NCBI GenBank assembly: GCA_016206875.1
Contig: JACQQR010000267.1
Coordinates: forward strand, 1-38,807
Reading direction: 5' to 3'
Length of the DNA stretch: 38,807 bases
Source: Candidatus Omnitrophota bacterium
Lineage (GTDB): Bacteria > Omnitrophota > Omnitrophia > Omnitrophales > JACROU01
Shown here: one piece after another, positions 20,644-28,725 of the stretch
How positions within the stretch are numbered: position 1 is the stretch's first letter
How the letters are laid out: each line of letters begins with the position of its first letter
Notes under the pieces: generated by a model
The model's database searches: none
What the model was told of the DNA's origin: nothing
Seen by the model: the letters and a program-made list of their open reading frames with translations, nothing else
Made by a program: the position numbers and the translations under genes

Positions 20644-20717
20644 AATTGAAAATGGGCGTAGCCCACCCACAAACCGTATAGTACCGCATTCCCAAAATCA
20701 AATGTTTTGCGGTACTA
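20644..20717. repeat. Copy B of the two-copy ~75-nt double-hairpin intergenic element
   Basis: It shares with 255-330 the block AATTGAAAATGGGCGTAGCCCA, then ..AAAC..TAGTACCGC.., then AAATGTTTTGCGGTACTA, in the same orientation. It starts 12 nt after the ileS stop. Confidence 0.6.
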
Positions 20718-20771
20718 AATGGGCTTTCACTTCTAATTGGCGCTACAGGAAACTTTCGAAGTGCCGTTACA

Positions 20772-20800
20772 TTGACAACGTGATGGCAGTCAGTTATCCT
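20772..20800 (+). promoter_or_regulatory. Candidate sigma70-type promoter for the histidine kinase operon
   Basis: TTGACA (20772-20777), a 17-nt spacer, then TATCCT (20795-20800). It lies ~65 nt upstream of the ATG at 20867. Confidence 0.3.
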
Positions 20801-20866
20801 TCTGGTTGCATAATCCAAAAACAAAGAAGAAGCAATTGGCCCCGCTGGTTTGGCAAAGAGAGGTCT

Positions 20867-22453
20867 ATGCTCTATCTGAGAAAACGCAAAATTGCGCTGA
20901 AAAAAGGGATGATGCTCGCCGGTTTTTTTGCCGTAGCCGTGGCCGCGCTTGAGATTAAAGACGTCATTACTTTTTTTCTGCCGCTTAAATTTTTAACTTC
21001 CCGAATTTTTGACATCGCCCTCGTTATCCTAACTTGCTTAATCTCTTATAAACCCTTAGAGCAACTTATTCATTACTTATTTCGCGAATGGTTATTTAAA
21101 AAGGGCGTCGGTTATCAAGTGCAATTGTTTCATTCGGCCGGCCATTTGATTTCCTGCCTGGATTTGAGAGAATTTTCAAATTTGGTGGTCAATACATTTT
21201 GTGATTTGCTGCACGTGAAGTATGTAGCGTTCTTGATTTTGGATTCTGCCCGCAAAGAATTTGTGCCCGGCACCCTAACCGGATTTCATTTCCGCGAAAT
21301 TCGAAATATTCAATTAGGGGTGAATTCCCCCTTAATTGAATATGTGCGCGGGATGGAGCGTCCTATTCTGCGTTACGATGCGCTCAAAGTGCTCAGTTGG
21401 ACGGATGCCTCCAAATTGAGCACAGATTTTGAATTGCTGAGAGCCCAGGCCGTGATTCCCGTGTACGGCGATCACCCAAAACGGGAATTATTGGGCATCA
21501 TTACGTTAAGTTCCAAGCCGACACATTTGGCGTATTTGCCTCATGAATTAAAATTATTTCATGATTTTTCCAATAAAATCGGCCAGGCGCTCGAAAACGC
21601 AATTCGTTACAATGAAATAAAATTCCACTATGAAGAGTTAAAAGATTTTCAATCCCGCCTGGTTCAGGTGAACAAATTCTCCGCGATTGAGCAGTTGGCT
21701 ACGGGGATTGCCCACGAAATACACAATCCGCTCACCATCATTTCCGGAAAAGCGCAAATGCTGCTTCTCAATAAGGATAAAAATCTTCTTACGTCCAAAG
21801 CCGAAGAAGATTTAAAATTAATTGTCCAGCAAACCAGCCGCGCGGCCGAGATCACACGCAAGCTCTTGATGTTCTCCAAGCCAAGCCCAGAACGTAAGGA
21901 AACGCTTTCTTTCAAGAATATTATTGATGATACATTCTCGTTAATCTCCTACCAAACTTCCATCGAGCACATTGAAATTATTAAAGAGCTTGATCCAAAA
22001 ATTCCCGAGTTTAAAGGGTATGTTGAGGAATTCCGGGAAATCTTTTTGAACTTATTTTTGAACGCGATCCAGTCGGTGGATAAATTCGGCACGGTGCGTG
22101 TTTTGGTTCAATATATGGAAGGCACCCAATGTCTGAATATTCAAGTGGAGGACTCGGGCTGCGGCATCAAGGAAGAGCATTTAGCCAACGTATTTGACCC
22201 ATTTTTTACGACCAAGCAAAATAGCCTGGGATTAGGCCTGTTTGTCACACAAAGAATCATTCAAAGAAATGGAGGTTCCATTCACATTGAAAGTGAGCCT
22301 ACACAAGGGACGCGGGTATCCTTTACTTTGCCCATGCTTTTAGGCAGTGAATTGCCTACGGGTGAGGGGGTGCTGTTAGGCGAGGAAGCAAAAGAGAAGG
22401 TCACTCTTGGCGGGGAAATGGCTTCTAGCCGCCGGCCAGGCAAGGAGGTTTAA
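20867..22453 (+). CDS. Sensor histidine kinase (two TM helices, GAF-like domain, HisKA, HATPase_c)
   Basis: It has the H-box GIAHEIHNPLTII, N-box FLNLFLNAIQS, a G1 box DSGCGI and a G2 box GLGLFV. The N-terminal hydrophobic helices are MMLAGFFAVAVAAL and IFDIALVILTCLI. I chose the ATG at 20867 over the track start at 20702, which runs into the repeat element. Confidence 0.88.
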   Translation: MLYLRKRKIALKKGMMLAGFFAVAVAALEIKDVITFFLPLKFLTSRIFDIALVILTCLISYKPLEQLIHYLFREWLFKKGVGYQVQLFHSAGHLISCLDLREFSNLVVNTFCDLLHVKYVAFLILDSARKEFVPGTLTGFHFREIRNIQLGVNSPLIEYVRGMERPILRYDALKVLSWTDASKLSTDFELLRAQAVIPVYGDHPKRELLGIITLSSKPTHLAYLPHELKLFHDFSNKIGQALENAIRYNEIKFHYEELKDFQSRLVQVNKFSAIEQLATGIAHEIHNPLTIISGKAQMLLLNKDKNLLTSKAEEDLKLIVQQTSRAAEITRKLLMFSKPSPERKETLSFKNIIDDTFSLISYQTSIEHIEIIKELDPKIPEFKGYVEEFREIFLNLFLNAIQSVDKFGTVRVLVQYMEGTQCLNIQVEDSGCGIKEEHLANVFDPFFTTKQNSLGLGLFVTQRIIQRNGGSIHIESEPTQGTRVSFTLPMLLGSELPTGEGVLLGEEAKEKVTLGGEMASSRRPGKEV

Positions 22454-22456
22454 GAC

Positions 22457-22822
22457 GTGGTAAAGTTACTGGTAGTGGACGATGAGCAGGAGATATGCGA
22501 TTTTTTGAGGGAGTTCTTTGAGGAAAAAAATTTTAAAGTAAGAACGGCTCTTTCCGGAGAAGAGGCTTTGCGGTATGTGGCGGAAGAGCAACCGGATGTT
22601 TGCCTTTTAGATATTAAAATGCCGGGAGAAGACGGACTTGAAGTACTCAGAAAAATTAAAAGGAAATATCCGGCCGTGAAAGTGATTATGGTTACAGCCC
22701 TTGAGGCGGCCGAAAAAATGGAAGAGGCAGCGCGGATGGGAGCGGATAATTATATTATCAAGCCTCTCAGCCTGGAGTATTTAGAAAATGACGTGTACAA
22801 AAAAATATCCGGAAGTTCGTAG
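22457..22822 (+). CDS. Stand-alone response regulator receiver (CheY-like)
   Basis: It has LLVVDDE, LLDIKMPGEDGLEVL, IMVTA and IIKP, with no output domain. The GTG start sits 7 nt after AGGAGG. Confidence 0.9.
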   Translation: MVKLLVVDDEQEICDFLREFFEEKNFKVRTALSGEEALRYVAEEQPDVCLLDIKMPGEDGLEVLRKIKRKYPAVKVIMVTALEAAEKMEEAARMGADNYIIKPLSLEYLENDVYKKISGSS

Positions 22823-22831
22823 AAAGGTTCT

Positions 22832-24094
22832 TTGCATACGAAAATGAATTACCAGGAAGTGTTAAAAAACGCCGCTCGAAGCATGGTGCGATTCAAAAAT
22901 CCGCATCATTTACTTCGCATGATTGCTCGTTTCATCGCCAAAGAAGTTCATCTCACTCATGCCAGCATCCTGCTCCATGATTCCGTTAGAAACCGCTACA
23001 TTTTTATTGATTCCAAGGGAGAGTTGAAAATTCCCGTCCGTTTGATTCGTGTGGATGCGGATCATCCGCTGATTCGCTGTCTCCAGGGAAAATGTGAAGT
23101 CCGTATACTGAAAAAAGATGTGCTTTCCTTAAGACATTTGGATGACATTTTGAATCATTTCCATACCAGCCCGGTTTCAAAACTTGAAGTTCAAAAAATC
23201 ATCGATTTGATGAAGGCGCTCAAGGCCTCACTTTGCGTTCCCAGCATTTACCGGGGAGAGCTGCTTGGGGTGCTTATTTTAGGCACAAAACGTTCGGGAG
23301 GGGATTTCACCGATGAAGAAATTTCCCATTTTCAAACTTTGGCCCATGATGCAGCGATGACGATCAAGACGGCTGCCTATCAGATGGAGCTTCTGGAACG
23401 GAATAAGCAGCTAGAAGAGCAGGTAACTGAAATTACCCGTTTACGAAAAAAAGAGCAGGAAACCTATTATCAAATTATGCTTTCCTTGGCTGAAGAAGTG
23501 CGGGAAAAGGATGATAGCACCTTTGGGCATTTGGCGGCTGTGGAAAAACTGGGAGTAATGACGGCTGAAGAAATGGGGATGGATTTAAACGGAAAAAAAC
23601 GGGACGTTTTGATTGCGGGTCTCAGGCTTCATGACATTGGGAAAATCGGAATTCCTGACGCCATCTTGAAAAAAGAAGACAGTCTGAATCAAGAAGAATG
23701 GGTGATTATGAAACAACATGCCGCAAAAGGCGCCAAAATTTTAGCGCCGCTGGCCGATTTTAAAGAGGTGGCTGAAATCGTTCATTGCCATCATGAGTTT
23801 TATGATGGGAAAGGCTATCCGCGGGGTTTAAAAGGGGACCAGATTCCCATTGAATCCGCCATCATTTCAGTGGTCGACGCGTTCCATGCCATGGTTTCGG
23901 AGCGCTGCTATAAAAAAGGATATCCTTTGGAATTTGCCATTCATGAACTGGAGTCCAACTCGGGCAGGCAATTCCATCCTAAGGTAGTGGAAGCTTTTAT
24001 GTCTGTTCTCAAGACGAAGATGCTCGGCTATTATGAAGCCAGAATGCATGAAATCCATGGAAACAACGCAATCCACGAGCGCAAAGCAAGTTGA
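22832..24094 (+). CDS. GAF domain / HD-GYP domain protein (putative c-di-GMP phosphodiesterase)
   Basis: The C-terminal part has HLAAVEKLG, RLHDIGKIGIPD and HHEFYDGKGYPRGL, the HD and GYP signatures. The N-terminal ~190 aa are GAF-like. An alternative ATG start lies at 22844. Confidence 0.88.
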   Translation: MHTKMNYQEVLKNAARSMVRFKNPHHLLRMIARFIAKEVHLTHASILLHDSVRNRYIFIDSKGELKIPVRLIRVDADHPLIRCLQGKCEVRILKKDVLSLRHLDDILNHFHTSPVSKLEVQKIIDLMKALKASLCVPSIYRGELLGVLILGTKRSGGDFTDEEISHFQTLAHDAAMTIKTAAYQMELLERNKQLEEQVTEITRLRKKEQETYYQIMLSLAEEVREKDDSTFGHLAAVEKLGVMTAEEMGMDLNGKKRDVLIAGLRLHDIGKIGIPDAILKKEDSLNQEEWVIMKQHAAKGAKILAPLADFKEVAEIVHCHHEFYDGKGYPRGLKGDQIPIESAIISVVDAFHAMVSERCYKKGYPLEFAIHELESNSGRQFHPKVVEAFMSVLKTKMLGYYEARMHEIHGNNAIHERKAS

Positions 24095-24172: not shown

Positions 24173-25456
24173 ATGAGAATCGTCGCAATAGCCAATCAAA
24201 AAGGCGGATGCGGTAAAACAACCACGGCCATTAATGTATCAGCCGCTTTGGCCATCCTCGGTAAAAAAACGCTTTTGGTGGACTTAGATCCTCAAGGGCA
24301 TTCCACGCTGGGCTTGGGGTTCCGGTTAGAAAGTTTCGAAAAAAACCTTTATGATGTGCTCAGCCCCAATGCCGATCAAATTTCGCTTGAAGAAGTGATT
24401 CAACGGATTCATCCCAATCATCATTTAGTGCCTTCCTGCATTATCTTGAGCGCCATTGAGCAGCAACTGGCCGGTGTGTACGGAAGGGAAGAAAAATTGA
24501 TGGAAAAATTAAAGCCCGTTGAGATGTTGTATGATTATGTCATCATAGATTGTCCGCCCAATTTAGGGCTATTGACTTTTAATGCGCTTCGCGCGGCCGA
24601 GGAGCTGGTGATTCCCGTTGAGCCGTCTTTTTTTTCTGTTCATGGGTTAAAAAAGATTCAAGAAACAGTGGCCTTGTTGGAAGAAACACTCAGGCACCGC
24701 CTTGCGGTACGCGCGCTGCTTACGCTTTTCAATGAGCGATCGAACTTCAATCGAAAGATTCTCGCTCAAATGAAAGAATTATTTCATGACCAAATGCTTC
24801 ATACCGTAATTCATCAAAATATAAAACTTCGTGAAGCGGCCGAGGCGGGCAAATCCATCTGTGATTTTGACACACAATGTTCTGGTTTCCGTGATTATAC
24901 AAACTTGGCTTTAGAGCTCATGAGCCGCCCCGGCGGGAATCCGGATGTTTCAGCCGGGGAGTTCAAAGAACCCTCCTGCGAGTTGAATCAACAAATAGTT
25001 ACGGTCAGCGAAGAAATCAAAGGGCAAATAGCGGATAGTTTTCATCGCGTGCCTGTCCAGGGCGAAACAGGGTCAGAAAGGCCGTCTGAAGTGATTCCGG
25101 TCAAGCCTCAAAAATCCGAGTGGCCCGGCCCTAAGTATCCGGTTTTGCTTAAAGAGGGAGTTATTTTCGGATTATTTCATCTGGAAGCGAAAAAGATTCA
25201 GATAGCCGGTGATTTCAACAATTGGGTGAATGAGCCGTTACAGCTGGCCAACGAAGAACCGGGACGCTGGATTAAATATTTTTCTTTAAGCCCGGGACGC
25301 TATCGGTATAAATTTATTGTGGACGGGGAGTGGACATTGGACCTGGAAAATCCGCTGACAGAACCTAATCCCTACGGGGGAACGGATTCGGTCATTGTGG
25401 TGGGCACCTCCCATAAAGAGATACCTAATGAACGAAGCTCAAAAAATCAAGCATGA
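24173..25456 (+). CDS. ParA/MinD-family ATPase fused to a C-terminal AMPK-beta-like glycogen-binding (CBM48 / E-set) domain
   Basis: The N-terminus has the deviant Walker A MRIVAIANQKGGCGKTTT, then DLDPQG and IIDCPPNLG. A ~70-aa low-complexity linker follows. The C-terminus KIQIAGDFNNWVNEPLQL...GRYRYKFIVDGEWTLDLENP...GGTDSVIVV aligns by eye with the AMPK beta GBD (SFNNW...YKFFVDGQW..D...P). Confidence 0.85.
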   Translation: MRIVAIANQKGGCGKTTTAINVSAALAILGKKTLLVDLDPQGHSTLGLGFRLESFEKNLYDVLSPNADQISLEEVIQRIHPNHHLVPSCIILSAIEQQLAGVYGREEKLMEKLKPVEMLYDYVIIDCPPNLGLLTFNALRAAEELVIPVEPSFFSVHGLKKIQETVALLEETLRHRLAVRALLTLFNERSNFNRKILAQMKELFHDQMLHTVIHQNIKLREAAEAGKSICDFDTQCSGFRDYTNLALELMSRPGGNPDVSAGEFKEPSCELNQQIVTVSEEIKGQIADSFHRVPVQGETGSERPSEVIPVKPQKSEWPGPKYPVLLKEGVIFGLFHLEAKKIQIAGDFNNWVNEPLQLANEEPGRWIKYFSLSPGRYRYKFIVDGEWTLDLENPLTEPNPYGGTDSVIVVGTSHKEIPNERSSKNQA

Positions 25457-26267
25457 GCTGAAAGATGTTGTGAGTGTTTTTTTATCCAAATCCGGTCCGA
25501 CTGAAACCAAAACGGATTCCCGCACTCAAGCGCTTCAAATGGAAACACAGATTCTGTCTTTTTGTTCGCCTTTTCACGAGGAAATAACTTTTGCATGCAA
25601 TGCATTATTCCCCGCCTCCCAGGCAGTTGCAAAAAAAATGCCGGAGCGCTACTTCATTACAGAAACGCTGAATCCCTCCGCCTTCCGGTTCTTGAATCGC
25701 TTGTATCCATCTCTGGCTCACGAAAAGCCCAAAAATGAGATGGCCCCCGGATATTTTTGGATTCAGCAGCCGGCCTCGTTTTTATTTGAAGAATCAAAAA
25801 ATATTTCCGGCGCTCCTATCCAAGGAACCCGTCCCGTACTCATTTGTTTGGATTTTGTGCAAGGCAACCGGATTGGATTTGAACCCTTCATTAAGGTGCT
25901 CGATCAACTGGTGTTGGTTCTGTCTCCTTCTATCGAAGATTTGGTGAATGCGTACAAGGTCATTAAGACTTGTTATTATTTGAACCGGCAAATCGATATT
26001 TTCATGATTTTCAACGCGTCTATGACTCCCCATCAAGTGGAGGTTTTATTCACTCGATTTTCACAAATTGTGGGGGAGTTTCTGGTGCTGTCCATCCGCT
26101 GTTTAGGGGCGGCGAAATTGGATTTGAAGCCGGAAACATTCGACCGCTCGGTTTTTTCCCAGATGAATTTTGATCCCCTATTTTCCGGAAATAGTTTAAA
26201 ACAAAAGCAAAAAGGTTATTCATTGGAAAGAATAAAATTTCTTCAAAAAATTAAGGAAATCATTTAG
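25428..26267 (+). CDS. Hypothetical protein with a degenerate (Walker A-less) MinD/FlhG/ParA-like fold
   Basis: VLICLDFVQGNRIGFEPFIKVLDQLVLVLSPSIEDLVNAYKVIKTCYYL and IDIFMIFNASMTPHQVEVLFTRFSQIVGEFL align by eye with the Walker B to switch II and downstream region of MinD/FlhG. SFCSPFHEE replaces the GKGGxGKT position. It overlaps the ParA-CBM48 gene by 29 nt. Confidence 0.5.
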   Translation: MNEAQKIKHELKDVVSVFLSKSGPTETKTDSRTQALQMETQILSFCSPFHEEITFACNALFPASQAVAKKMPERYFITETLNPSAFRFLNRLYPSLAHEKPKNEMAPGYFWIQQPASFLFEESKNISGAPIQGTRPVLICLDFVQGNRIGFEPFIKVLDQLVLVLSPSIEDLVNAYKVIKTCYYLNRQIDIFMIFNASMTPHQVEVLFTRFSQIVGEFLVLSIRCLGAAKLDLKPETFDRSVFSQMNFDPLFSGNSLKQKQKGYSLERIKFLQKIKEII

Positions 26268-26269
26268 GC

Positions 26270-26878
26270 ATGAATATTCAAGTGATTCAGCCCGGCCGGC
26301 TGGAAATAAAAGAGATGGCCTCTTTATCGGAGGCGTTGGTTAAAAAATTATATCCGGAATTTCAACCCATTCGTTTGCCGGGCTGGTTAGCGTCCAAAAC
26401 GGAAGAGGGGATATGGATTTACGAATGTTCACAGAAAATACTGATTGTTTTTTTCTGGCGGGAGGCCCCTGAGCTTTTAGAAAATCTAACCCGTCTTACG
26501 AAAATACAATCATCCTGGTCTAATTTTGTATCCGGTTTTGACGCTCAAAATCACATTGCCACAGCCATTTTTGCCAAAGAAATTCCTTCTTCGATTTTAA
26601 AATTATTTTCACAGGATTCTTCCGTTCGGCTGTTTGAATTAACACTTCAAGATGAAGAGCAAACTTTATTTGTCAAAGAGAAAACGGAGAATCATTCATC
26701 CCCGGAGAAGAAAAAAATAAAATCCGAAATCGCCCCGCCTAAAAGCGCCGGACCGGAAGGCGCTGTGAGGCAAGAAGCCGCTTTCTCCTCCTTTTTTTAC
26801 AAAATGGGAAAGCTCTCCGAAGAAGAATTAACCCGGTTTGTTGAGTTGGAAGCCGATTTAGCGCAAACACAATTTTGA
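26270..26878 (+). CDS. Hypothetical protein, no family recognised
   Basis: The ORF is 202 aa and starts 2 nt after the preceding stop. It has a ~140-aa N-terminal globular region, a Lys/Pro/Ser-rich linker and a C-terminal amphipathic segment (FFYKMGKLSEEELTRFVELEADL). Confidence 0.6.
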   Translation: MNIQVIQPGRLEIKEMASLSEALVKKLYPEFQPIRLPGWLASKTEEGIWIYECSQKILIVFFWREAPELLENLTRLTKIQSSWSNFVSGFDAQNHIATAIFAKEIPSSILKLFSQDSSVRLFELTLQDEEQTLFVKEKTENHSSPEKKKIKSEIAPPKSAGPEGAVRQEAAFSSFFYKMGKLSEEELTRFVELEADLAQTQF

Positions 26879-26881
26879 CAA

Positions 26882-26914
26882 ACAGGGCGAGATTCAGTTT
26901 ACTTGCCCTGTTTT
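26882..26914 (+). terminator. Intrinsic terminator closing the ParA-CBM48 module
   Basis: ACAGGGC (26882-26888) pairs with GCCCTGT (26905-26911), followed by TTTT. A possible promoter, TTTACT-16-TATAAT (26898-26925), overlaps it and faces the next gene. Confidence 0.5.
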
Positions 26915-26983
26915 CTCATTATAATGAACGCCTTTATTGCCTGAAGGTTCCGCGCCGGCGGCGTTTCTCTAAAGAGGTTATGA

Positions 26984-27700
26984 ATGCCTACATTTAAGCA
27001 AGACTTAGAAGTGTTAAAGAAGGTGCAAGTATTGGACAAAGAAGTGTACGATTTAGGCGTTCTTCTCTCGCAGTTGCCCGAGCGCCTTGCCGTTTTGGAC
27101 CGTGATCTGGAAGAGAAAAAAGCCCGCTACTTGCAAGTGGAAGAAGAAATCAAACAGCTGCATCTCGCCGTAAAAGAAAAAGAATTGGACCTCGGCAAGA
27201 AAGACAGTGAAATTAAAAAATTAGACGGCCATTTATCCCAAGTAAAGACCAATAAAGAATACTCGGCCATCCTCCAGGAAATTGCCAATATCAAAGCCGA
27301 TAAGGGAATTTTTGAAGAAAAGATTCTTACGGATTGGGACCGCGCGGATCGGTTACATGCCCAGCGCGAAGAAGAGAAGAAAAAAATCGACGCGGAACAG
27401 AGCAAAACGGATCAATTAAAAGCGGCGATTCAATCAGAAGCTAAACAGGCAGAAGAAAAAATTAAACAATTAAAATCAGAGCGCAAACAAGTATTAGAGC
27501 CCGTGAGCAAAGAAATGAAAGAGCTGTACGAAAAAATTCTCGCCAAACGCGAAGGAATCGCCCTGGCAAAAATAGACGGTGAAAATTGCGGTGGGTGCCA
27601 GTTTCTTCTTCGTCCTCAAATCATCAGCGAAGCACAGCTTGAAGAGAATGTCACGCTCTGCGAGCGTTGTACTCGCATTCTCTACGTCGAACCCAAGTAA
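26984..27700 (+). CDS. COG1579-type coiled-coil protein with a C-terminal C4 zinc ribbon
   Basis: It has a long heptad-rich coiled coil, a KTNKEYSAILQEI motif, and CGGC...CERC cysteine pairs at the C-terminus. Confidence 0.82.
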   Translation: MPTFKQDLEVLKKVQVLDKEVYDLGVLLSQLPERLAVLDRDLEEKKARYLQVEEEIKQLHLAVKEKELDLGKKDSEIKKLDGHLSQVKTNKEYSAILQEIANIKADKGIFEEKILTDWDRADRLHAQREEEKKKIDAEQSKTDQLKAAIQSEAKQAEEKIKQLKSERKQVLEPVSKEMKELYEKILAKREGIALAKIDGENCGGCQFLLRPQIISEAQLEENVTLCERCTRILYVEPK

Positions 27701-27899: not shown

Positions 27900-28346
27900 G
27901 TGTTCTACGGTGAATACGCACATAATATCGATAAGAAAGGCCGCTTAATTGTGCCGGCGCGCTTTCGAGAAATTTTTAAAGAGCGCTATGCGGAAAAGTG
28001 TTACGTCACGCGCGGCTTGGACAAGTGCTTATTTTTATTCACCGAAGAAGATTGGAAACAGCAGGAAAAAAAATTTAAAGAACTTTCGTTTACCCGGGAA
28101 GAGGCAAGAAAGTTTAACCGATTATATTTTTCCGGAGCCGCGGAAGTCATTTGCGACGCGCAAGGCCGGATATTAATTCCTCAATATCTGTTGGATTATG
28201 CGCTGATCAAAGAAGATGTAATGATTGTGGGTGTTTCGGACCGCGTGGAAATTTGGTCAAAAGACAAGTGGGGTGAATTTTTTAATTCATCCATTGATAG
28301 TTTCGAATCCCTGGCAGAAAAGCTGATTGAAGATAAAAAGGATTGA
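27900..28346 (+). CDS. mraZ: Transcriptional regulator MraZ
   Basis: (GTG)FYGEYAHNIDKKGRLIVPARFRE lines up with the canonical MraZ N-terminus. The second SpoVT/AbrB-like repeat, DAQGRILIPQYL, is present. Confidence 0.92.
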   Translation: MFYGEYAHNIDKKGRLIVPARFREIFKERYAEKCYVTRGLDKCLFLFTEEDWKQQEKKFKELSFTREEARKFNRLYFSGAAEVICDAQGRILIPQYLLDYALIKEDVMIVGVSDRVEIWSKDKWGEFFNSSIDSFESLAEKLIEDKKD

Positions 28347-28380
28347 AATCCATAAAACCTATAGCGAAAGGAAGGTGAAC

Positions 28381-28725
28381 ATGGAGTTCGCACGCAGAAC
28401 CGGAAGAGGCACGGGAGTGAATGTCATTCGTTGCAACAATTTAAGGGCTTCTTATGTTGTGGATCTCAGAAACAAAATGAATCGTCTCATGAACCGTAAA
28501 AATTTCCGGTTGGTTGTGGATTTGGGCTCAGCCCGGAAAATGGATGCGGCCGGACTCGGCATTCTCGTTGAGCGGTTGATGAGAAATCGCCAGCAAAAAG
28601 GCAATGTCAAATTGTGCAGCGTGCGTCCAGAAATTTCACGGATGATGATGCGTGTTGGAGTCAATCGTGTATTCGAAGTGTTTAATACCAGGGAAGAAGC
28701 GTTAAATAGCTTCCGGGAAATGTAG
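28381..28725 (+). CDS. STAS-domain protein (anti-sigma-factor antagonist-like)
   Basis: LVVDLGSARKMDAAGLGILVERL ... LCSVRPEISRMMMRVGVNRVFEVFNTREEAL is a typical SpoIIAA/STAS core. I chose the ATG at 28381, which follows GGAAGG. Confidence 0.8.
   Translation: MEFARRTGRGTGVNVIRCNNLRASYVVDLRNKMNRLMNRKNFRLVVDLGSARKMDAAGLGILVERLMRNRQQKGNVKLCSVRPEISRMMMRVGVNRVFEVFNTREEALNSFREM

Follow-up and report, generated by a model that had tools for sequence, protein, structure and literature searches.

A ParA-type ATPase clade with a fused CBM48 module and modular partners: a candidate glycogen-granule positioning system in Omnitrophota and other bacteria

We describe a three-gene operon, g1-g2-g3, in the window, by which we mean the complete 38.8-kb contig of a Candidatus Omnitrophota metagenome-assembled genome (MAG). 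Its first gene encodes a ParA/MinD-type ATPase fused through a flexible linker to a carbohydrate-binding module of the CBM48/AMPK-beta type, followed by a pseudo-ATPase with a predicted FlhG-like fold and an orphan protein. The comparisons presented below firmly support the conclusion that such ATPases constitute a distinct ParA clade, with a cognate putative ParB-like activation peptide and modular partners. As for their function, we consider the chances about even that the operon is a ParA-type system tethering or positioning alpha-glucan (glycogen) granules, with an inferred link to glycogen. The features of the operon are as follows (aa, amino acids).

24173-25456 (+): g1, 427 aa, NCBI MBI4398998.1, annotated as 'AAA family ATPase'
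24173-24928 (+): ATPase domain of g1, aa 1-252, Soj/ParA-type with the deviant Walker A motif KGGCGKT
24929-25159 (+): flexible linker of g1, aa 253-329, rich in P, E, S and G
25160-25456 (+): C-terminal CBM48/AMPK-beta-type module of g1 (PF16561, PF02922), aa ~330-414, plus a short tail
25428-26267 (+): g2, 279 aa, FlhG/FleN-like fold predicted from family profiles, P-loop destroyed
25443-25490 (+): N-terminal peptide of g2, aa 6-21 (KIKHELKDVVSVFLSK), a degenerate copy of the family motif
26270-26878 (+): g3, 202 aa, MBI4399000.1, HY586_07715, annotated as 'hypothetical protein'
26270-26689 (+): N-terminal alpha/beta domain of g3, aa 1-140, weakly NucS/EndoMS-like (AlphaFold2 model, Foldseek)
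26783-26869 (+): C-terminal helix motif of g3 behind a disordered linker, an invariant block in 11 a-type sequences (see below)
26881-26914 (+): hairpin plus U-rich stretch, a probable intrinsic terminator closing the operon

The three open reading frames (ORFs) lie where the original prediction, made from the DNA alone, had placed them: the ATG of g2 at 25428 overlaps the end of g1 by 29 nucleotides (nt), a start choice backed by the conserved N-terminus of the orthologues, and 2 nt separate the stop codon of g2 from the start of g3. The hairpin with which the unit had been proposed to end is likewise real in the sense of folding energy (-18.5 kcal/mol, z = -5.6; none of 200 shuffles was equally stable) and is followed by the U-rich UUUCUCAUU; a simple terminator scan had missed it because its loop is 10 nt long.

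The ATPase and its carbohydrate-binding module

Residues 1-250 of g1 match the Pfam families AAA_31 (E-value 6e-55, 186 bits) and CbiA (1.6e-19, 70 bits), both above the cut-off, and the best PDB sequence matches of the domain are the ParA protein of M. xanthus (8RAY, 1.2e-49) and Soj (1e-41). g1 bears the deviant Walker A signature of ParA/MinD proteins, namely, the KGGxGK[ST] lysine, the Walker A'/switch Asp and the Walker B Asp. The motifs KGGCGKT, DLDPQG and IIDCPP are near-invariant among 120 homologues; K10, D37, D39 and D126 never vary, nor does Cys13 (120/120), and the ATPase can be regarded as intact, as originally predicted. The Walker A motif reads KGGCGKT throughout the clade, as against KGGVGKT in canonical ParAs, and g1 falls below the NCBI ParA_partition equivalog (NF041546, 109 bits against a cut-off of 180). 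Taking the DNA-contact residues of HpSoj and BsSoj as reference (PMC6393308), we found basic residues at the aligned positions in 65-93% of the 120 homologues (R189 in 110/120, K/R220 in 111/120 and K/R234 in 93/120); g1 of the window itself has no basic residue at 234. Since these positions of non-specific DNA contact are conserved as basic residues, nucleoid binding by g1 is plausible.

The C-terminal domain had been proposed to be an AMPK-beta/CBM48 module including the Trp, Lys and Trp of the sugar platform, and the Pfam searches bear this out. AMPK1_CBM (PF16561) matches aa 337-411 with an E-value of 1.2e-12 (48.3 bits, cut-off 26.8) and CBM_48 (PF02922) with 3.4e-6 (27.7 bits, cut-off 22.4), the two matches together covering aa 328-411, and the PDB sequence of the AMPK beta1 module (1Z0M) is matched at 8.8e-9. 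Through the 1Z0M alignment we mapped the carbohydrate contacts of AMPK beta1, which we take to be W100, K126, W133, L146 and N150, onto W351 (conserved in 120/120 homologues), K/R380 (119/120), W387 (117/120), Y/F401 (100/120) and D/N405 (117/120), that is, a conservation of 83-100%. In the window, W351, K380 and W387 are identical to AMPK beta1, and Y401 and D405 are conservative replacements. The module is present in 119 of the 120 best homologue clusters, and the linker, foreseen as flexible in the original prediction, ranges from 13 to 176 aa (median 39) with no conservation. As two stacking Trp and a Lys that stay near-invariant in 120 divergent homologues are hard to explain without sugar binding, the conservation of the contacts across proteins 38-63% identical argues for real glucan binding by this module. 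It belongs to the same subfamily as the modules of AMPK beta and of the plant CBM48 proteins PTST, SEX4 and LSF, with the same Trp-Lys-Trp platform, and there too it brings a non-enzymatic partner to glycogen or starch; however, those modules belong to kinases, phosphatases or scaffold proteins of eukaryotes, and none of these is fused to a ParA.

The ParB-like peptide, the pseudo-ATPase and the orphan protein

g2 alone has no Pfam or NCBIfam match, and its similarity to g1 is not significant (BLASTP E-value 0.33; hhalign of the g2 family against the profile of the g1 ParA domain, 0.081). As a word-indexed homologue search returned 3 relatives of g2 and 6 of g3, we gathered both families by gene position in the fetched loci (denoted L001 to L141). 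A profile of 18 g2 sequences from several phyla matches FlhG (4RZ3, 1.5e-16) and FleN (2e-13), and a profile of Omnitrophota sequences only matches FlhG (4RZ2, 8e-10 over aa 139-248 of g2); these PDB sequence matches are the sole route by which g2 is tied to the ParA/MinD superfamily. The position of the P-loop reads CSPFHEEIT in the window and is degenerate in all g2 sequences, in line with the original description of g2 as a MinD/FlhG-like protein without a P-loop. The AlphaFold2 model of g2, built from 3 input sequences, has a predicted local distance difference test (pLDDT) score of 38. g2 follows the ParA gene directly in more than 20 loci. We also considered a MinD-like amphipathic membrane helix at the C-terminus of g2, which the hydrophobic moment of the last 15 aa does not support, being no higher than in shuffles, in a crude test in which the E. 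coli MinD helix was no higher either.

The N-terminus of g2 is aligned across phyla as (K/R)xLG(R/K)GLx(D/E)(I/V)SHxFLS, with the family motif LG(R/K)GLx(D/E)ISHxFLS and the consensus form KRLGRGLEDISHLFLS. This resembles the N-terminal LG(R/K)GLxAL motif of the ParB proteins in canonical ParA-ParB loci that were fetched as by-catch, and in ParB the motif is the one that binds ParA (PMC12462528). We therefore presume, by this likeness, that the peptide of g2 is a ParA-binding, ATPase-activating motif. When a metagenome collection was scanned with the back-translated pattern L-x-[KR]-G-L-x-[DE]-I-S-H-x-F-L-S, 49 loci were retrieved, in 40 of which the motif lies within an ORF of 60 aa or longer, whereas 9 have no such ORF. 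Directly upstream of 38 of these 40 ORFs lies a ParA of the KGGCGKT clade, or its CBM end at a contig edge, and most of these ParAs carry the CBM; the other two, L104 and L135, gave no ParA match. The strict motif occurs in none of about 60 canonical ParA loci.

The proteins carrying the peptide are built in several ways: (i) the peptide is joined to the FlhG-like domain as in g2, and g3, bearing an LSxEE tail, follows; (ii) the peptide is fused straight to the g3 domain, after which the protein ends with no tail, a form common in soil loci; (iii) the peptide, the FlhG-like domain and the tail are combined in a single protein with no g3 (L139); and (iv) the peptide is followed by a Lys-rich region and DUF4912 (plus Glucodextran_B) in a protein whose gene, a few positions past the triad in the downstream direction, neighbours that of a GH57/BE_C glycogen branching enzyme (L087 and L140; in L095 an N-terminal fragment cut by the end of the locus). 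Since the same peptide is found on a g3 domain or a DUF4912 protein in related lineages, it behaves as a portable address tag for the g1-type ATPase. Two side observations bear on the peptide: in L116 (2614-4225) and L127 (6303-7914), a 425-aa KGGCGKT ParA, with a C-terminal extension of about 150 aa that matches neither the CBM nor any other Pfam family, is followed by a 104-aa protein consisting of little beyond the ParA-binding motif; and the L011 protein of another Omnitrophota subgroup (described below) begins with MSFLKKISDVIKEVFW, which bears a faint resemblance to the motif.

g3 of the window had been called a protein of no recognisable family, and it indeed has no Pfam, NCBIfam or PDB sequence match, nor does the profile of its family match PDB sequences or Pfam. 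Proteins of this a-type have 13 relatives among 1.84 billion representative proteins. The AlphaFold2 model from 11 sequences has a mean pLDDT of 70, and about 80-88 for aa 1-140, for which the top Foldseek matches are all nuclease folds (5GKE and 5GKJ, EndoMS; XisH; 2INB; 2VLD, NucS; N.BspD6I). The catalytic D...(D/E)xK residues are absent from the a-type g3 of the window, and by this model its aa 1-140 weakly resemble an inactive NucS/EndoMS-like PD-(D/E)xK fold. A more widespread b-type of g3 (L005, L014, L016, L017, L020-L022, L026 and others) aligns with the a-type by hhalign at 1.9e-4 over 140 columns. The C-terminal helix SFFYKMGKLSEEELxRFLxLExDL is near-invariant in 11 a-type sequences and is shortened to LSxEExxxF in other phyla, with which the b-type also ends. 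In a two-gene form (L026 4175-4921 and about 20 soil metagenome loci, e.g., L099 2361-3041), the b-type g3 keeps GEIDLLAVD...IIDFDT, with acidic residues at the position of the nuclease motif and no Lys; judging from these residues, residual metal binding may persist.

The LSxEE tail is found only where an FlhG-like domain exists and is absent from the peptide-g3 fusions, and from this confinement we infer that the tail docks on the FlhG-like domain. FlhG itself binds the LSxxEIDALL peptide of FliM/FliY, which is similar to the tail of g3. g2 is like FlhG and FleN in its fold, most clearly from Walker B through the C-terminal half (4RZ2/4RZ3, 5J1J), in an N-terminal peptide that addresses another NTPase (FlhF in the case of FlhG), and in probably binding a short acidic LSxEE-type peptide. 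It differs from them in that its P-loop is destroyed, the DQAxxLR motif is missing, no flhF or flagellar genes lie nearby, and it has no supported C-terminal amphipathic membrane helix.

Distribution and gene neighbourhoods

All close relatives examined, including those with other flanking genes, have the triad, that is, a ParA-CBM gene followed by genes of the sizes of g2 and g3. In a scan of GTDB species genomes, we found full-length fusions in Omnitrophota, Planctomycetota (Sedimentisphaerales, Phycisphaeraceae and Planctomycetia), Myxococcota, Gammaproteobacteria (e.g., Thiogranum), Gemmatimonadales (Gemmatimonadota) and Vicinamibacterales (Acidobacteriota). The fusion thus spans at least six phyla and g1, g2 and g3 form a unit conserved across phyla; far from being a rarity confined to this genome, the architecture belongs to a large multi-phylum clade. 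The KGGCGKT motif tracks the fusion, since 27 of 30 such ParAs carry the CBM, and in a neighbour-joining tree of ATPase domains (drawn with no bootstrap) the 28 ParAs linked to a CBM or to g2/g3 form an exclusive clade apart from the canonical ParAs. Canonical ParA-ParB pairs are separate from it, also within Omnitrophota (L079).

In loci of Myxococcota, Gammaproteobacteria and Nitrospirota type (L016 5157-5861, L017 5146-5601, L021 5383-5913 and L022 5415-5900; also L091, L101 and L130), the gene immediately preceding the clade ParA codes for a MerR-family helix-turn-helix (HTH) protein (MerR_1, 7.6e-16), which could be a regulator of the operon or a DNA-binding component. In another subgroup of Omnitrophota (L008 7068-7834, L010 7106-7417, L011 7182-8021 and L025 2012-2728), g2 and g3 are replaced by a DUF4870-like membrane protein of about 105 aa and a very Lys-rich protein whose C-terminus is weakly EF-Tu-domain-2-like.

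A GH57 branching enzyme is encoded 0-5 kb downstream in L087, L137 and L140, in L137 directly after g3, and GH57 and/or the peptide-tagged DUF4912 protein is found a few genes downstream in four loci (L087, L095, L137 and L140). A Cu-oxidase_4 (PgeF/YfiH-like) gene stands between g3 and the DUF4912/GH57 genes in L087 (4397-5146), L095 (5055-5822) and L140 (12793-13560), and in L087 and L140 the ParA gene has upstream of it one for a type IV pilin-like (N_methyl) protein.

The remainder of the window consists of housekeeping genes, including scpAB, aromatic amino-acid genes, tRNA synthetases, an H+-pyrophosphatase and the division and cell wall (dcw) cluster, whose mraZ-STAS-rsmH-ftsL-ftsI genes lie about 1 kb downstream of the triad. 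Directly upstream of g1, at a distance of 78 nt, a histidine kinase, a single-domain response regulator and a GAF + HD (HD_5, HD-GYP-like) protein are encoded at 20702-24094 (+); they are conserved only in the closest relatives (L001, L002), and their co-transcription with g1 or a regulatory role is possible. The gene separating the triad from mraZ, located at 26984-27700 (+) in the window and present also in L001-L004, L006, L089, L139 and L141, encodes a coiled-coil Zn-ribbon protein like CT398/CdsZ (PF24481/PF02591; the NCBIfam CdsZ match, 1.6e-20, is below the cut-off); a promoter-like site at 26898-26925 is proper to this gene. The STAS-domain gene at 28327-28725 (+), anti-sigma-antagonist-like and located between mraZ and rsmH, is kept in all related Omnitrophota loci, an unusual composition for a dcw cluster.

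Tethering of glycogen granules and alternative roles

In the mechanism that we propose, ATP-bound dimers of g1 would attach to the nucleoid by way of their conserved basic patch, and the two CBM48 modules of each dimer, on their flexible linkers, would hold alpha-glucan (glycogen) granules. The N-terminal peptide of g2 would dock at the interface of the ParA dimer and cause ATP hydrolysis and release, as ParB does on ParA. g3 would be recruited to g2 via its C-terminal LSxEExxxF tail, serving as a conserved end-module that may act either as a hub or as an anchor on the side of the cargo. In this way, glycogen granules would be dynamically tethered and spaced along the nucleoid and passed on at division.

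The link to glycogen is suggestive, resting on the sugar platform, on the tagged DUF4912 and GH57 neighbours, and on the capacity for glycogen synthesis reported for most Omnitrophota MAGs from Ace Lake (PMC8542988). The granule hypothesis of the original prediction has thus gained support, from the conserved sugar contacts and from the GH57 or tagged DUF4912 genes in the four loci, with the link itself still an indirect one. Several observations count against it. No glycogen genes are found within the 38.8-kb contig, and GH57 or DUF4912 adjacency is seen in 3-4 of about 66 loci, three of them from one lineage. The peptide of the window is degenerate, with His where most sequences have Arg or Lys, and the Foldseek match of g3 is weak (best E-value 5e-3, template modelling (TM) score about 0.37). 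The g3 domains are acidic to neutral (net charge -9 to +1), a charge that also lends no support to g3 being a basic non-specific DNA binder. Some clade members have no CBM and keep the same partners (L022, L090, L091, L094, L101 and L128-L130; L022, L091, L101 and L130 are Nitrospirota-like, often with a MerR gene upstream), so the core machine is not strictly CBM-dependent. Moreover, a motor that holds its cargo by a domain of its own does not fit the classical ratchet, in which the activator is borne by the cargo, and the dynamics of g1 are therefore speculative.

The CBM-less members also bear on a different reading, in which glycogen would be a signal rather than the cargo: the CBM48 would be an AMPK-beta-like sensor or sink that sequesters the ATPase or modulates it with the state of the carbon store, and the machine would position an object defined by g3. 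The core machine being independent of the CBM agrees with this, as do the g3 domain being the most constant partner element, fused to the peptide in many soil loci, and the module being of AMPK-beta type, with PF16561 scoring above PF02922. However, the neighbourhoods offer no alternative cargo candidate, the DUF4912/GH57 link points to the granule itself, and the CBM is kept in about 90% of the clade members sampled; we consider this reading unlikely, if worth keeping in sight. That the beta-sandwich binds no glucan at all and is a protein-interaction or autoregulatory domain appears quite unlikely. E-set/CBM48 folds are reused for protein contacts, the CBM of AMPK also packs on the kinase domain, and the residues equivalent to L146 and N150 of AMPK beta1 are Y/F and D/N rather than identical, but the near-invariance of the two Trp and the Lys noted above speaks against this.

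A role in positioning the division site or divisome, in the manner of PomXYZ, MipZ or MinCDE, had been raised from the location of the triad upstream of mraZ-rsmH-ftsL-ftsI, and the order triad, CT398-like, mraZ, STAS, rsmH, ftsL, ftsI is in fact kept in the window and the loci just named for the CT398-like gene. Yet MraZ, RsmH and FtsI neighbours are absent from the GTDB loci L007-L030 and the metagenome loci L090-L138, so that MraZ/RsmH neighbours belong to one Omnitrophota lineage and to none of the other ~60 loci; in L005, L087 and L140 the triad and the dcw cluster lie apart; the synteny extends equally to the upstream housekeeping genes obg-proBA-nadD-CNNM, indicating lineage gene order; and the hairpin and the promoter-like site part the operon from the next gene. 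This weakened hypothesis we hold to be very unlikely. Extremely unlikely, finally, is a role in plasmid or chromosome DNA partition, or in anti-phage defence by an ATPase plus nuclease, toward which the closeness of the ATPase domain to chromosomal ParA/Soj and the weak likeness of g3 to the PD-(D/E)xK nuclease fold might point. The genes downstream of g1 are g2 and g3, with no partner of ParB, HTH or CTPase type, canonical ParA-ParB pairs occur at loci of their own (L079 in Omnitrophota), the ParA_partition score stays below its cut-off, the context is housekeeping and chromosomal, and g3 is a non-basic protein in which the D..(D/E)xK residues are missing. A defence system was also rejected for want of any meaningful PADLOC match.

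Against known systems, the proposed machine compares as follows. The ATPase domain of g1 shares 40-50% sequence identity with M. xanthus ParA (8RAY) and with Soj and has the full set of catalytic motifs as well as the basic patch. As in chromosomal ParABS, a partner carries an N-terminal LG(R/K)GL-type peptide; in contrast to ParABS, there is no ParB, parS or CTPase here, the Walker A is KGGCGKT, the ATPases form a separate clade with CBM48 on the ATPase, and the partners are an FlhG-like pseudo-ATPase and a protein of predicted nuclease fold. With McdAB, which positions carboxysomes, and the other orphan ParA cargo systems PomXYZ, ParC/PpfA and MipZ it shares a ParA/MinD ATPase encoded next to one or more small, fast-evolving partners, and a presumed cargo that is a cytoplasmic body and not DNA. 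However, in those systems the cargo is reached only via the partner, whereas here a cargo-type domain is fused to the ATPase, and none of them has a counterpart to the set of a pseudo-FlhG and a NucS-like fold. The original view that a direct cargo domain takes the place of a separate adaptor therefore stands as to the fusion, but the system is not adaptor-free, as g2 has a ParB-like peptide. PhaM tethers polyhydroxybutyrate (PHB) granules to the nucleoid, as a passive DNA- and granule-binding protein and not an ATPase system; the proposed outcome, a carbon-storage granule coupled to the nucleoid for distribution at division, is alike, but the g1 system is ATPase-based and the polymer differs.

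In the searchable literature we found no published description of a ParA with CBM48 or glycogen, of the KGGCGKT motif or of DUF4912 in this context, in agreement with the original statement that no characterised ParA of this architecture is known; an Omnitrophota survey paper mentions neither glycogen nor ParA, and a recent ParA/MinD review mentions neither glycogen nor fusions. We regard the operon as a ParA/MinD positioning system that is new in its architecture and probably in its cargo. That it is the first dedicated ATP-driven machine for partitioning or positioning glycogen granules in bacteria, with a ParA clade carrying its own cargo module and interchangeable partners wired by a portable peptide, is possible, at somewhat less than even chances.

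ParA/MinD ATPases place large objects in bacteria, such as chromosomes, plasmids, carboxysomes, chemoreceptor arrays and the divisome. We found no ParA/MinD-type system in the literature for glycogen, the most widespread bacterial carbon store, and according to a recent report (PMC12706056) glycogen bodies in E. coli reshape the positions of nucleoids and division sites. With its parts clearly listed, the clade is a candidate open to direct testing, and its design, in which a presumed cargo-binding domain belongs to the motor and unrelated partners share one short, portable activation peptide, is undescribed for ParA systems. If the proposal is true, DUF4912 and three families now called 'hypothetical' would gain a function.

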